Positions 3,664-59,765 of a DNA stretch of 64,000 nt are shown piece by piece. The position numbers and the translations under genes are program-made. Each line of letters starts with the position of its first letter. The first letter of the stretch is position 1. This DNA comes from Escherichia phage S143_2. The notes beneath the pieces were generated by a model. The model saw nothing but the letters and a program-made list of their open reading frames with translations, did not search any database and was not told the origin of the DNA. The DNA lies in the sequence record MZ189261.1, one strand, 5' to 3'.

Positions 3664-5480
3664 TAGGACATCCATTCTTTACGAAGTTCAGAATCATCAC
3701 CCAACAACATTTCAAAGAGTTCTTTCCAATTTTCAGGAAGTTTAACTACGTCGTACACAGGGTTCTGAATCATTTCACGATATTCTGACTTTTCAAGGGA
3801 GCCCAATCCCTTGATGTATCGAATACTATGCTTAGGCAGTGTATCTTTAGCTTCTTCATACTCAGCTACAGTATAAAACCATTTTTGAGTTTTGCCAATT
3901 TGTGCAATAATTACAGGCGTTTTAACAAAGCGAATACGTCCTTGTTCAAACAATTCAGGCCAATTACTAAAGAAAGCAAGCAAAGCCGGATAAATACTTC
4001 CAAGACCGTCATGATCGGCATCGGTCATAATTGCAATATTACGATAGTTCGTATTCTCTGCCTTTTCACCAAGAATAAGACCTGTGATAGCACAGATATC
4101 AAAGAGCTCTTTGTTCTTCATCATATCAGCATATGACATACCCCAGCTATTCATCACCTTACCACGTAATGGGAATCCGCCGTGTAGTTCACGGTCACGA
4201 ACATCAATGAGATAACCAATTGCCGAATCACCTTCTGTTAAAAACAATGTCGTATCTGCATCTTTACCACATTGGTTAGCTTTAATATGCTTATGAACCT
4301 TAGCTTTAGTTGCCTTTTTAGCTGCTTTAGTTTCTGCAGCCTTTTCTGCTGCCAATTTACGAGCTAATGCTGCTTCAACAATAGGCATAATCAAAGCTTC
4401 ATTTTTAAGAAGTGCCTGAGCAATTTTCTTAGCATCTAATTGGATATGATTACGAATATCACCATACGTTGACGTTAAACGTTCTTTAGTCTGAGAATCA
4501 AAACGCATGTTGCTCATGTCTCTAATAAACATCAACATTGTGAGACATTCTTTAACACGAGCTTTAGTGACTTCAATACCCTTATATTTCTTTTTAATGC
4601 CGGGCAAAAGATGTTCGCAGATATCATCCATTACACATTCAACATGATGACCACCATTTTTAGTATGAATGTTATTCACATAAGTTAAATGACGGAAGCC
4701 GTCTGGTGATGTTGTGAATGCTATAGAGACTTTATCATTTTCTTGAATGATGTTATCTTCACCAAATTGTTTAGCAAATCGTTTAAAATTACCATCAACC
4801 TTTTTACCATTAAATGTGAACTTGATATCAGGATAAACGACTGCCAATGTTTGAAGTCGGTCTAAAGTAATATCTAAATAAATTTGAGATAAATTATGCT
4901 CTTCAAATGAAGAGAAATCAGGAGTGAAGATTACTTTAGTGCCTTTACCTTTAGATTTCTTAGAAGACCATGATTTGTTTTCCATTCCGTTTGAACAGTT
5001 AACAGTGATTTCATTTTCGCCATCTGACGTGATGCCTGTAAACAACGTAGAGAAGATATTAGTTAAACTACTCCCGACGCCGTTCATACCACCAGTCTTA
5101 CGTTCAGAGTCATCGCCAAAGTTACCGCCAGCCTTTGGAATAGTCCAGGCTGCTACAGGCCCAGGAATTTGTTCACCTGTTTGATCGGTAACTAAACCTT
5201 GAGGAATACCACGTCCGTTATCTTCCACCGAAACTTGATTATTTTTAATTTGCACATCGATTTTATTTGCAAACTTAAATGATGTACGAATAGCTTCATC
5301 AACCGAGTTGTCAATAATCTCATCGATTAATTTAACCAGACCGGGAACATATTCAACTTGTTGATATTTACCAAACAAAAAACGCTCGTGGGCTTCTTTA
5401 GCCGAAGATCCAATATACATACCACTACGTTTCTTAATATGTTCTACATCTGATAATACCTTAATTTCATTTTTAATCAT
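3663..5480 (-). CDS. 39: DNA topoisomerase II large (ATPase) subunit, fused gp39+gp60 form
   Basis: 605 aa, MIKNEIKVLSDVEHIKKRSGMYIGS start, GyrB-like; length matches the unsplit 39/60 form. Confidence 0.9.
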   Translation of the reverse strand: MIKNEIKVLSDVEHIKKRSGMYIGSSAKEAHERFLFGKYQQVEYVPGLVKLIDEIIDNSVDEAIRTSFKFANKIDVQIKNNQVSVEDNGRGIPQGLVTDQTGEQIPGPVAAWTIPKAGGNFGDDSERKTGGMNGVGSSLTNIFSTLFTGITSDGENEITVNCSNGMENKSWSSKKSKGKGTKVIFTPDFSSFEEHNLSQIYLDITLDRLQTLAVVYPDIKFTFNGKKVDGNFKRFAKQFGEDNIIQENDKVSIAFTTSPDGFRHLTYVNNIHTKNGGHHVECVMDDICEHLLPGIKKKYKGIEVTKARVKECLTMLMFIRDMSNMRFDSQTKERLTSTYGDIRNHIQLDAKKIAQALLKNEALIMPIVEAALARKLAAEKAAETKAAKKATKAKVHKHIKANQCGKDADTTLFLTEGDSAIGYLIDVRDRELHGGFPLRGKVMNSWGMSYADMMKNKELFDICAITGLILGEKAENTNYRNIAIMTDADHDGLGSIYPALLAFFSNWPELFEQGRIRFVKTPVIIAQIGKTQKWFYTVAEYEEAKDTLPKHSIRYIKGLGSLEKSEYREMIQNPVYDVVKLPENWKELFEMLLGDDSELRKEWMS

Positions 5481-11666: not shown

Positions 11667-12275
11667 TCAGTAACCAACAATAGACAGATTCCAGATTGTA
11701 TAACGTCCATCTTGAATAATAGAATCTACACGCAGTGTAGTCCCTATAGGGAGCATAAATTCACATTCGTCAGATATAAGTCTAGCATTAGACCGTCTTG
11801 TCGCTTCAGGGAAAGCTCCATTGAACTCACAAGATGGCGCAGCCAGAATCATATTAAGCATATGTTCACGGAAGTTGAAAGCAAATGGTGCATCTTTGAT
11901 GCAGAACATATTAAATGTTCCGTAAAAATTATACGAAGCAAAGTTACGTGCTACACCGAACACTGGGCTGAAGCTCATTACTCTGTCAAATTTAATAATA
12001 CTACCAATGCCTTTATCATCGAGTGTGGCCATAGTTTTCTTAGAGATTCCACGATACATTGTCTCAGGAACAGAAGACGTCCAATTTCTACGAACGATTG
12101 AACTTAACTCCTGTTGAATACAGTCTGGCTTGTTTTCCATACATTGCCACAGTACACTTTGTTCAATGTCGCTGAATTGACTATCAATTTCGTACTGCAA
12201 TACATCTTGATATTCGGGGTTTTGAGCACGACGAACCATTTCTTCAATTTCACACTCGTTATACGGCATAAACAT
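11667..12275 (-). CDS. modA: ADP-ribosyltransferase, ModA/ModB-like
   Basis: R-S-E type motifs (MYRG, ECEF), 202 aa, position after the Srd-like gene. Confidence 0.6.
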   Translation of the reverse strand: MFMPYNECEIEEMVRRAQNPEYQDVLQYEIDSQFSDIEQSVLWQCMENKPDCIQQELSSIVRRNWTSSVPETMYRGISKKTMATLDDKGIGSIIKFDRVMSFSPVFGVARNFASYNFYGTFNMFCIKDAPFAFNFREHMLNMILAAPSCEFNGAFPEATRRSNARLISDECEFMLPIGTTLRVDSIIQDGRYTIWNLSIVGY

Positions 12276-12333: not shown

Positions 12334-12424
12334 TAAAAATTCAACATTTTCAAATGAATGATTTTGTTAGGTATTCGCGTTCTTGAAGTTCAGATTGACA
12401 TGTCATGATAGACCTCCATTTAAA

Positions 12425-16808: not shown

Positions 16809-17468
16809 TTAACCTCGATTCATAAATGCATTAAATATTTGGTCATCAACAGAAATTTCTAATTCAGCTTCAATTGTTTCAGCCTTTTCTTCAGGTGGTA
16901 ATTCGTATCCACACACTACAATTTTTTCATCGATATCAAAATATACAGAAGCAATACGATTAATGTTATTTTCAGTTAAGTCTAAATCAACATCAACATC
17001 TTTTTGACCTTCACTTAAAGGATAACTAATACGGGTTATTTTATTATCTTTAACAAAGAGTCCACCAACATACTCTGTACTACGTTTGAAGTTTACACGT
17101 TTCCGAATTGAAAGATATGATGCATCTTTACCGTGAGCTCGGCTCATAGGACATAATGAATAGCTAGAATAAGAGATGTCAAATCCTACACCTTCAATAT
17201 GAGCCAACGTGTCATGATTAAACCAATTATAATCATATGCCAAATCCATTATATTGTAATATGTGAAAGGCACCGGATTAACATCATACGTTGTACCTTT
17301 AAAATCTGCCCAGGCAATGATTTCGTTATCTTTAACAATTACAAAAATTACACCAATATGATATCCGTTATTATTTTCGTTCGGCGTTATATTATAACAT
17401 TGTGCATTAGGAAATTTACCATATTTAAATGGCGCATTTTTGTGCATATAATAAATCATATTATTCAC
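16809..17468 (-). CDS. hypothetical protein (219 aa)
   Basis: ORF track. Confidence 0.55.
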   Translation of the reverse strand: MNNMIYYMHKNAPFKYGKFPNAQCYNITPNENNNGYHIGVIFVIVKDNEIIAWADFKGTTYDVNPVPFTYYNIMDLAYDYNWFNHDTLAHIEGVGFDISYSSYSLCPMSRAHGKDASYLSIRKRVNFKRSTEYVGGLFVKDNKITRISYPLSEGQKDVDVDLDLTENNINRIASVYFDIDEKIVVCGYELPPEEKAETIEAELEISVDDQIFNAFMNRG

Positions 17469-58570: not shown

Positions 58571-58773
58571 AAGGAATTTATATAATCAATAAGTTCTTGT
58601 TCTTTATCGTCGAAATCTTTACACAGTTCTTCGTATTCGTCGGTATTAAAAGGACCGCATTCATCGCAAACTTTTTCCAATTCACTATTTTTATCCATAA
58701 CTTCGTGAATAAGAGAAAATAGTATGTCTTTTTGTTCTTTACTTAAACTCATAACCATGTAACCTTTAAGCAA
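58567..58773 (-). CDS. hypothetical acidic Cys-containing protein
   Basis: ORF track; start may be internal ATG. Confidence 0.4.
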   Translation of the reverse strand: MLKGYMVMSLSKEQKDILFSLIHEVMDKNSELEKVCDECGPFNTDEYEELCKDFDDKEQELIDYINSL

Positions 58774-58976
58774 TATTCTTCTACATGTTGTTTACGACCT
58801 TTCTTATCAATAAAGGTATATTCAACGAATGTTCCGATGTAGTCTTTATCTACATCATGTGGACTATTAATTGGACATTTAGTACGACAAATGCGTTCCC
58901 ATTGACGAATAATTACTGCTTTATTTTTAGGATCAAACGGATGTGGGTAATGCACATTCATAATAATGGTTCCCAA
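58749..58976 (-). CDS. hypothetical protein (75 aa)
   Basis: ORF track. Confidence 0.4.
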   Translation of the reverse strand: MGTIIMNVHYPHPFDPKNKAVIIRQWERICRTKCPINSPHDVDKDYIGTFVEYTFIDKKGRKQHVEEYCLKVTWL

Positions 58977-59455
58977 TCAACAATCACAATTTCTAGTTTA
59001 GTGGAATATGTATCAAGAATTTCTTCAATGATATCCCAGTTTCCACCACCTATACCTGCACCAATTCTTGGCATATAAATTACAGGCTTTGTTATCTTAT
59101 TTTTTCCGAATTCATTTAATTCTATTATACAATTCGTTAAAGCATAGTACTCAAAATTAGGTCCCGGCTCAAACTGTGTATAAAGATTAAAGCAATAAGC
59201 TTTATGGGTCTTAAAATATTTTTCATAAACCGAATAAGTCCCGAGTTTAGACTCGTCTCCGAATTCGGTTTGAAGTTTATCGGCTTCTAGAATTTTTGGA
59301 TAAGCCTTTGCTAATTGTCCTGCCACACCGGCGCCCATTGTATGAAAACAATTACACCCATGAGCTATATTATTACCTTTAGAAAACAGGGCGACAATAT
59401 CGCCCTTGATATAGTTTTTAATCACTTGCTGCAAGTCCTCTAGTATAAGAGTCAA
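58958..59455 (-). CDS. macro-domain protein (ADP-ribose binding/hydrolase fold)
   Basis: HGCNCFHTMGAGVAG and IGAGIGGG glycine-rich loops, 165 aa. Confidence 0.55.
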   Translation of the reverse strand: MTLILEDLQQVIKNYIKGDIVALFSKGNNIAHGCNCFHTMGAGVAGQLAKAYPKILEADKLQTEFGDESKLGTYSVYEKYFKTHKAYCFNLYTQFEPGPNFEYYALTNCIIELNEFGKNKITKPVIYMPRIGAGIGGGNWDIIEEILDTYSTKLEIVIVDWEPLL

Positions 59456-59765
59456 CTAGACGGTCCACCATAGAATTGCATGCTGCCTTATCTTTAGGTT
59501 CCGCCACCGAGCATTCTAATATTTGCCATTTTTTATAGTATCTTTTAATTAAGGTAGACGCCTTGAACCTACTAGACGCCCCATCTTTTTCTCCGTCTTT
59601 ATACGCATATAACAATTTTTGTGAAAAATCTACTTTACACTCTTGACTTTTACCACAATAATCAGACGCCGTTCTGTTTGTATACTCCGTTACATCAGTA
59701 TATGTAGTATTAGCAAGAGCGCTAAATGAAACCAAGCCAACTATTAAAGCCAACATTTTGGTCAT
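59418..59765 (-). CDS. secreted protein (115 aa)
   Basis: signal peptide MTKMLALIVGLVSFSALA. Confidence 0.45.
   Translation of the reverse strand: MTKMLALIVGLVSFSALANTTYTDVTEYTNRTASDYCGKSQECKVDFSQKLLYAYKDGEKDGASSRFKASTLIKRYYKKWQILECSVAEPKDKAACNSMVDRLVDSYTRGLAASD

Follow-up and report, generated by a model that had tools for sequence, protein, structure and literature searches.

A tk.4 (adfM)-type macrodomain gene in Escherichia phage S143_2 and its probable role against DarTG2

What role does a stand-alone macrodomain play in a phage that also encodes an ADP-ribosyltransferase? The question is raised by a locus toward the end of a stretch of 64,000 nucleotides (nt) from Escherichia phage S143_2 (sequence record MZ189261.1), which was analyzed over its whole length and is referred to here as the window. 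A preliminary description of this DNA had proposed a macro-domain protein at 58958..59455 and a ModA/ModB-like ADP-ribosyltransferase at 11667..12275, and had suggested that the two act as writer and eraser of ADP-ribose marks, or that the macro domain counters host ADP-ribosylation or NAD-derived defense signals. The flagged gene belongs to a known type of phage macrodomain, reported in T4 to protect against DarTG2, and is ordinary for its phage group and already explained in the literature: judged by sequence, it is essentially certain to be the orthologue of T4 tk.4, also named adfM.

The macro-domain open reading frame (ORF) is present on the minus strand, and Pfam, phrog_335, AlphaFold and Foldseek agree on its family, as the preliminary description had held. 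The Pfam Macro profile (PF01661) matches at 28.9 bits against a gathering threshold of 22 (E = 1.2e-6; profile positions 2–117 of 118), and phrog_335 matches at E = 2e-66. The protein is 83% identical to T4 Tk.4 (NP_049723) across all 155 residues, and 97% identical to RB69 Tk.4. The gene itself is shorter than the maximal ORF, of which position 59455 is merely the first TTG. Most likely, tk.4 occupies 58958..59425 (minus strand), with a GTG start at 59425, a TGA stop at 58960..58958, and a stand-alone macrodomain product of 155 amino acids. This start is favored because the GTG at 59425 aligns exactly with the ATG start of T4, because the annotated gene has a matching length in relatives (468 nt in T4 and in the RefSeq entry of phi25-307, giving 155 amino acids in both, and 465 nt in RB69, giving 154 amino acids), because alignments with homologues begin only at residue 11 of the long ORF, and because a GAGGA element lies 10 nt upstream. 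This Shine-Dalgarno-like element, of putative function, is located at 59436..59440 (minus strand) in the 3'-terminal part of vs; T4 keeps it, as seen in an alignment that also includes RB69 and phi25-307. The 10-codon N-terminal extension from the TTG at 59455 was rejected; it is out of frame in T4 owing to a 1-nt indel upstream of the start, and it is unannotated in all three relatives checked (T4, RB69 and phi25-307).

Structure prediction, which had been recommended as a check, gave a confident macro fold: the AlphaFold2 model (pLDDT 95.8, pTM 0.91) has the three-layer alpha/beta architecture of macrodomains, with an ADP-ribose cleft. In a Foldseek comparison with the PDB, 136 structures matched at E ≤ 1e-3, and the best 50 of these 136 are all macrodomains or enzymes designed on one. 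The best structural matches include TARG1 (E = 2.5e-10), Poa1p (TM-score 0.80), the DarG macrodomains (TM-score about 0.75) and BT1257, and Foldseek assigned a probability of 1.0 to TARG1, Poa1p, DarG and BT1257. A sequence search of the PDB ranked BT1257 first (E = 1e-10), followed by Poa1p (E = 3e-8), SCO6735 (E = 7.5e-5), and DarG and TARG1 (both E = 1e-3). The family is very large: among 1.84 billion representatives of 50%-identity clusters, a profile search returned 18,161 members at E ≤ 1e-3, of which 1,184 reach E ≤ 1e-30, and the Tk.4 family consists mostly of stand-alone proteins (median length, 159 amino acids).

DarG, the antitoxin of DarT, is the sole match of the macrodomain protein in NCBIfam and PADLOC, and this match is confined to the macrodomain of DarG. 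The score against the DarG equivalog (NF048014) is 30.1 bits, compared with a cut-off of 250, and covers profile positions 4–146 of 338, so that the protein is not placed in the equivalog itself. The C-terminal DarT-binding domain of DarG is absent from the phage protein, and the macrodomain gene is flanked by vs and tk.3 rather than by darT, which is not the adjacency that characterizes DarG.

The pocket was examined residue by residue. Across 64 homologues with identities down to 37%, the residues G23, N25, G33, A35, D49, G62, N80, Y82, Q84, P119, I121, G122 and G124 are invariant, and among the best 150 representatives of 50%-identity clusters N25, D49, Y82, Q84, G122 and G124 are each found in all 150. 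Together with N25, the glycine-rich phosphate-binding loops G31-x-G33 and I121-G122-x-G124-x-x-G127-G128 supply the features expected of a Macro family member. The preliminary description had envisaged a macro domain lacking its ADP-ribose-binding residues as the finding that would undo its reading; we found the reverse, with binding and catalytic residues invariant. A profile hidden Markov model (HMM) built from the 64-member family was aligned to each of five references. In this alignment the column of Q84 holds K80 of DarG, K84 of TARG1 and the glutamine of BT1257, where the DarG and BT1257 sequences came from database matches and the TARG1 sequence is a provisional one whose K84 and D125 numbering agrees with the literature. 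The column of N25 holds the conserved asparagine of DarG and N23 of PhiKZ gp104, the latter by a weak match. The N-x-x-T-[Q/K] register is consistent in four of the five references (PhiKZ gp104 again matching weakly) and agrees with the predicted end of the strand. An alternative alignment with DarG, TARG1 and PhiKZ gp104 made with MAFFT set the catalytic lysine one column away from Q84; it was ambiguous and was superseded by the profile HMM alignment.

The catalytic lysine that TARG1 and DarG carry at the end of the central strand is thus replaced by glutamine in 150 of 150 family members. The phage protein shows instead the features of the SCO6735/BT1257 class, namely a glutamine at the lysine position, a positioning asparagine and a stand-alone architecture. 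The ADP-ribose pocket is intact and strongly constrained, and it is of a Gln type rather than of the Lys type of DarG and TARG1. Orthology, fold, conserved pocket and Gln-type active site are all computed here.

The biochemistry of this class is known from SCO6735, in which Gln85 occupies the position of the DarG/TARG1 lysine and which cleaves thymidine-linked ADP-ribose on DNA (PMC9411070). All DNA activity is lost in the Q85A and Q85E variants of SCO6735 and almost all in N27S, and the proposed chemistry is water-mediated, with the glutamine positioning the distal ribose (PMC9411070). The equivalence of Q84 and SCO6735 Q85 is drawn through their common alignment to the DarG/TARG1 lysine (PMC9411070) and is not a direct residue alignment. 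Because the T-even AdfM proteins lack the catalytic lysine of DarG, their chemistry is probably that proposed for SCO6735 and not that of DarG.

The link to DarTG2 comes from genetics on T4. In a T4 transposon library challenged on a DarTG2-expressing host, tk.4 was the only gene to score significantly, and a clean deletion of tk.4 rendered T4 sensitive to DarTG2, for which the gene was named adfM (anti-DarT factor macrodomain) (2025 preprint, bioRxiv 10.1101/2025.11.20.689424). Independent work found that loss of the NADAR factor adfN leaves T2 and T4 resistant to DarTG2, implying a second factor (PMC11825919). In vitro, AdfM (gp104) of phage PhiKZ clears DNA of ADP-ribose added by DarT2; it also relieves the toxicity of DarT2, and mutation of its conserved asparagine reduces the removal of ADP-ribose from DNA (PMC13309987). 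The suggestion in the preliminary description that the macro domain could counter host ADP-ribosylation thereby gains support through the T4 orthologue, at 83% identity, from both the screen and the knockout (10.1101/2025.11.20.689424). An anti-DarTG2 role of the RB69-type Tk.4 is very probable, as transferred from T4 at this level of identity, and Tk.4 probably removes DarT2-made thymidine-linked ADP-ribose through its Gln/Asn-type active site. We infer that the substrate and phenotype of the RB69-type protein are those of its relatives.

The following course of events is proposed. Infection would release host DarT2, which would ADP-ribosylate thymidines in single-stranded phage DNA and so block replication. 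Tk.4, expressed from the densely packed regB-vs.1-vs-tk.4-tk.3-tk.2-tk.1-tk array, would bind the ADP-ribose and hydrolyze the N-glycosidic bond between thymine and ribose, restoring the DNA. By analogy with SCO6735, Gln84, held by Asn25, would probably position the distal ribose for water-mediated cleavage. Tk.4 would thus be an antitoxin-like "orphan" hydrolase that dispenses with the DarT-binding domain of DarG, and it would act independently of the phage ModA transferase.

Several observations weigh against this reading. The DarTG2 phenotype is that of T4 alone, the RB69-type protein being known from its sequence and a model, and our literature search returned no report on the DarTG2 resistance of RB69-like phages. 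The evidence of the T4 preprint is limited to genetics and structural similarity, and hydrolysis by Tk.4 is there described as something that "seems likely" (10.1101/2025.11.20.689424). Tk.4 has no counterpart of the catalytic lysine found in DarG and TARG1, the score against the DarG equivalog is 30 bits where the cut-off is 250, and the sequence is nearer to the uncharacterized BT1257 and to Poa1p, an ADP-ribose-1''-phosphate phosphatase, than to DarG, so that other or additional substrates are conceivable. Furthermore, SCO6735 kept its inhibition of DarT in vitro when catalytically dead (PMC9411070), and binding rather than hydrolysis could therefore contribute.

A rival reading is that the anti-DarT2 role is non-catalytic, with the macrodomain binding and blocking DarT2 or shielding ADP-ribosylated DNA. 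It is encouraged by results with the inactive proteins SCO6735 Q85A, DarG K80A and TARG1 K84A, each of which inhibited DarT in vitro, SCO6735 most strongly (PMC9411070), and by the missing DarG lysine in Tk.4. However, N25 and Q84, the counterparts of the residues required for catalysis in SCO6735, are retained in every one of the 150 representatives, and conservation is just as strong in the glycine phosphate-binding loops, a sign of selection on an active site. Tk.4 also lacks the part of DarG that binds DarT, and PhiKZ AdfM acts catalytically (PMC13309987). We regard a purely non-catalytic role as improbable and hydrolysis as the reasonably likely mechanism of the RB69-type Tk.4.

The proximity to Poa1p bears on a different proposal, in which Tk.4 would hydrolyze not a DNA adduct but a soluble ADP-ribose derivative such as ADP-ribose-1''-phosphate, O-acetyl-ADP-ribose or an NAD-derived signal (for example, the cyclic ADP-ribose isomer of Thoeris). 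Poa1p, which acts on the first of these, has the top query TM-score of the PDB matches (0.80) and has an H-x-C-N-C motif in common with Tk.4, and database entries carry the labels "phosphatase" or "O-acetyl-ADP-ribose deacetylase". These names are labels transferred by homology, not assays; the Gln/Asn site matches that of SCO6735, a proven hydrolase of thymidine-linked ADP-ribose on DNA (PMC9411070); and the T4 orthologue has a single reported phenotype, which is specific to DarTG2 (10.1101/2025.11.20.689424). A small-molecule substrate in place of DNA is accordingly hard to credit.

The remaining question is whether the macrodomain is connected with the transferase encoded in the same window, as the preliminary description had supposed. 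The transferase itself was identified correctly. The ORF at 11667..12275 (minus strand; the start annotated in RB69 corresponds to an ATG at 12269) encodes an RB69-type ModA ADP-ribosyltransferase, which matches phrog_832 "RNA polymerase ADP-ribosylase" at E = 2.5e-37 and is 94.5% identical to RB69 ModA. Identification relied on PHROGs and direct comparison only; searches of Pfam, NCBIfam, PADLOC and PDB sequences gave no match for this protein. The motif residues R75, S101 and E170-x-E172 are invariant in an alignment of five proteins (the window protein with the ModA and ModB proteins of RB69 and T4), and the gene lies directly upstream of srd, as it does in T4 and RB69. By its R-S-ExE motif, profile match and position beside srd, the protein belongs to the arginine-specific ModA/ModB family, with a predicted rather than observed activity. 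It is the positional orthologue of T4 modA, yet by sequence slightly nearer to T4 ModB (31% identity, E = 2e-33) than to T4 ModA (about 30%, E = 7e-21), and for this reason its substrate specificity should not be assumed from the name ModA.

The companion gene modB is deleted in Escherichia phage S143_2. In the remnant at 12350..12406 (minus strand), the initial 14 codons (MTCQSELQEREYLT) are joined, out of frame, to the terminal approximately 30 nt of the gene; in tblastn, residues 1–15 of RB69 ModB match 12406..12362. About 0.5 kb is absent relative to RB69 modB (RB69 comparison piece 3816..4397), and the junction falls at a common ACAAA microhomology. The number of Mod-like places varies among close relatives, with one in some (e.g., phage F2) and two in RB69 and JS09.

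That modA and tk.4 fall within one 64-kb window reflects the conserved T-even layout, not a statistical association; T4 carries both genes as well, at about 12 kb and about 61 kb. The proposal under consideration is that the macrodomain removes ADP-ribose (or RNA chains) placed on host proteins by the phage ModA or Alt, thereby tuning or timing these marks. Both activities are found in one genome, both genes lie in early-region arrays, and macrodomains in general are erasers of ADP-ribose (PMC9503650). However, 47 kb and dozens of genes separate modA from tk.4, and the two lie in different arrays and are not co-operonic, unlike cognate writer/eraser modules of the DarT-DarG or DraT-DraG type, which are adjacent or co-transcribed; and modB has been deleted here while tk.4 is intact.

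The distributions of the two families differ as well. Of 50,697 phage records searched with tblastn, 2,798 contain a Tk.4-like macrodomain, among them 183 Pseudomonas, 134 Vibrio, 94 Acinetobacter and 86 Aeromonas phages, compared with 1,078 records with a Mod-like protein at E ≤ 1e-5, a threshold that a divergent transferase could escape. The top ten organism names among the Mod-like records all denote groups of enterobacterial phages, and no more than 44 records fall under the remaining names; it follows that several hundred phages (at least 450 from Pseudomonas, Vibrio, Acinetobacter and Aeromonas) carry the macrodomain with no detectable Mod-like enzyme.

The chemistry of the marks points in the same direction. 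We know of no macrodomain of the TARG1, DarG or SCO6735 class that cleaves arginine-linked ADP-ribose. The marks made by ModB are arginine N-glycosides, which ARH1 removes (in vitro, for ModB products) and which are insensitive to hydroxylamine (NH2OH) and ARH3, and they can be found on rS1 isolated from cells infected with T4, even though T4 carries tk.4 (PMC10468400). In the T4 screen, moreover, tk.4 was reported to score in the DarTG2 comparison only (10.1101/2025.11.20.689424). We found nothing that links tk.4 with the phage ModA, and the pairing of transferase and macrodomain as writer and eraser, put forward in the preliminary description, is unsupported in view of the distance between the genes, their different distributions, the loss of modB and the removal of ModB marks by ARH1; we consider it exceedingly improbable.

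Reversal of RNA ADP-ribosylation is another conceivable function, for instance on uracil-linked or 2'-OH-linked marks left by other host toxins, and passages in the literature on reversible RNA ADP-ribosylation mention enzymes of the Tk.4 class. CmdTAC, an mRNA ADP-ribosyltransferase system, still strongly defends against T4, which carries tk.4 (PMC11618068), and at least this RNA mark is therefore not neutralized. RNA as the substrate is highly improbable. None of these four alternatives (non-catalytic inhibition, a soluble substrate, erasure of phage-made marks and RNA repair) has positive evidence. A broader variant, in which the Gln-type Tk.4 family extends beyond DarT2-modified thymidine to ModA/Alt ADP-ribosyl or RNAylation marks or to an NAD-derived immune signal, is very doubtful; if it were correct, tk.4 would be a dual-purpose regulator and counter-defense enzyme, and not the antidote to a single system.

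The gene neighborhood is that of a T-even phage. The 3.5 kb around the macrodomain gene is 97–99% identical to Mosigvirus (RB69-like, Tevenvirinae) genomes, such as Shigella phage SSE1 and phi25-307, and the array reads regB, vs.1, vs, the macrodomain ORF, tk.3, tk.2, tk.1 and tk, which is the T4 order. With modA at about 12 kb and tk.4 at about 59–61 kb, the coordinates agree with those of T4 and RB69; from these coordinates and the matching gene order, the window corresponds, in essence, to the initial 64 kb of an RB69-like T-even genome. Immediately upstream of tk.4 lies vs (59418..59765, minus strand), the valyl-tRNA synthetase modifier (phrog_1256, E = 3e-35), and the two genes share 8 nt (GTGATTAA) where vs stops and tk.4 starts. 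The downstream neighbor is tk.3 (58749..58961, minus strand), which encodes a DUF7202 protein (Pfam E = 9e-39, residues 6–75 of the maximal ORF) and whose ATG at 58961 shares bases with the tk.4 stop (ATGA), a 4-nt overlap that is identical in T4. The tk.3-tk.4-vs order, in which each stop codon overlaps the next start, is common to T4, RB69 and phi25-307.

Between 57 and 62 kb, promoter-like sites were no more frequent than in shuffled sequence (15, compared with 18 ± 4), and for this reason no dedicated tk.4 promoter can be claimed. In the same interval there are 6 terminator-like sites, compared with 2.7 ± 1.9 in shuffles. On the coding strand at 59388..59406 (minus strand), 20 nt into tk.4 at codons 7–13, there is a hairpin with an 8-bp stem and, after it, a T-rich run (AGGGCGATATTGTCGCCCT GTTTTCT); the stem is identical in T4, RB69 and phi25-307, and the hairpin probably reflects coding constraint rather than a terminator. 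Across the whole 64-kb window, the Rfam scan gave no family at gathering score, and the tRNA/tmRNA scan found none.

The practical value of these findings is in annotation: the gene should be read as the anti-DarTG2 factor AdfM. In relatives, tk.4 is labeled "phosphatase", "hypothetical protein", "O-acetyl-ADP-ribose deacetylase" or "putative thymidine kinase" (one 2026 preprint), and the first two of these names, or even that of thymidine kinase, still stand in most deposited T-even genomes. The name "phosphatase" derives from A1pp/Poa1p similarity and not from an assay.

Among known systems, T4 Tk.4/AdfM is the nearest counterpart, and it shares with the protein of Escherichia phage S143_2 the 83% identity, the position between tk.3 and vs, the overlapping start and stop codons, and all family-invariant residues. 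The 26 substitutions between the two include none in invariant columns. At the position of G127 here, which is the family consensus, T4 has a lysine; T4 starts the gene with ATG and this phage with GTG; and the DarTG2 phenotype is that of T4. SCO6735 of Streptomyces coelicolor (PDB 5E3B) resembles Tk.4 as a stand-alone protein of the ALC1-like class with glutamine in place of lysine and a positioning asparagine, and it is a match in both PDB sequence (E = 7.5e-5) and structure (Foldseek TM-score about 0.71–0.74), but the identity is about 21%, and SCO6735 is the product of a bacterial, chromosomal, DNA-damage-inducible gene. The DarG macrodomains (Thermus aquaticus 5M31 and 5M3E; Mycobacterium tuberculosis 5M3I) share the fold (TM-score about 0.75), the conserved asparagine, the glycine loops and, presumably, the substrate; Tk.4 differs from them in having neither the DarT-binding domain nor an adjacent darT, in carrying Q84 for K80, and in an identity of about 20%. 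Human TARG1/OARD1 and yeast Poa1p are the closest solved folds among the PDB matches listed. TARG1 uses a K84/D125 dyad, of which the equivalents in Tk.4 are Q84 and a glycine, whereas Poa1p is annotated as an ADP-ribose-1''-phosphate phosphatase and is the source of the misleading label on Tk.4.

T4 AdfN (gp30.3, NADAR) and AdfA (gp61.2) are likewise T-even counter-defenses against DarT toxins (PMC11825919), but they have unrelated folds and act on DarTG1, through guanosine-linked ADP-ribose or inhibition of the toxin, and AdfN is ineffective against DarTG2. An orthologue of gene 61.2/adfA is present in the window at 16809..17447 (minus strand; 97.6% identity to RB69 gp61.2), and its residue 164 is arginine, as in wild-type RB69. 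The Arg164 allele of AdfA has been reported not to neutralize DarT1, with R164H as an escape mutation (PMC11825919). On the adfA count, Escherichia phage S143_2 is thus predicted to be sensitive to DarTG1 unless adfN, which is located outside the window, is intact.

PhiKZ gp104, the other protein called AdfM (Cell Rep 2026, PMC13309987), is also a stand-alone phage macrodomain that counters DarTG2, with N23 corresponding to N25 here. It differs in being of the Lys type (FPTKDNW) and near to DarG (E = 9e-25 to M. tuberculosis DarG), in its marginal BLASTP match to the protein described here (E = 6e-4 over 23 residues), and in being imported into the phage nucleus. Going slightly beyond the cited papers, we therefore describe the T-even AdfM as Gln-type and SCO6735/BT1257-like, and its PhiKZ namesake as Lys-type and DarG-like. 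By their sequences, T4 Tk.4 and PhiKZ gp104 are separate lineages under one name, and phages have therefore recruited anti-DarT2 macrodomains at least twice. The Gln-type assignment and the two lineages leave unchanged the verdict that tk.4 is an ordinary gene of its phage group.

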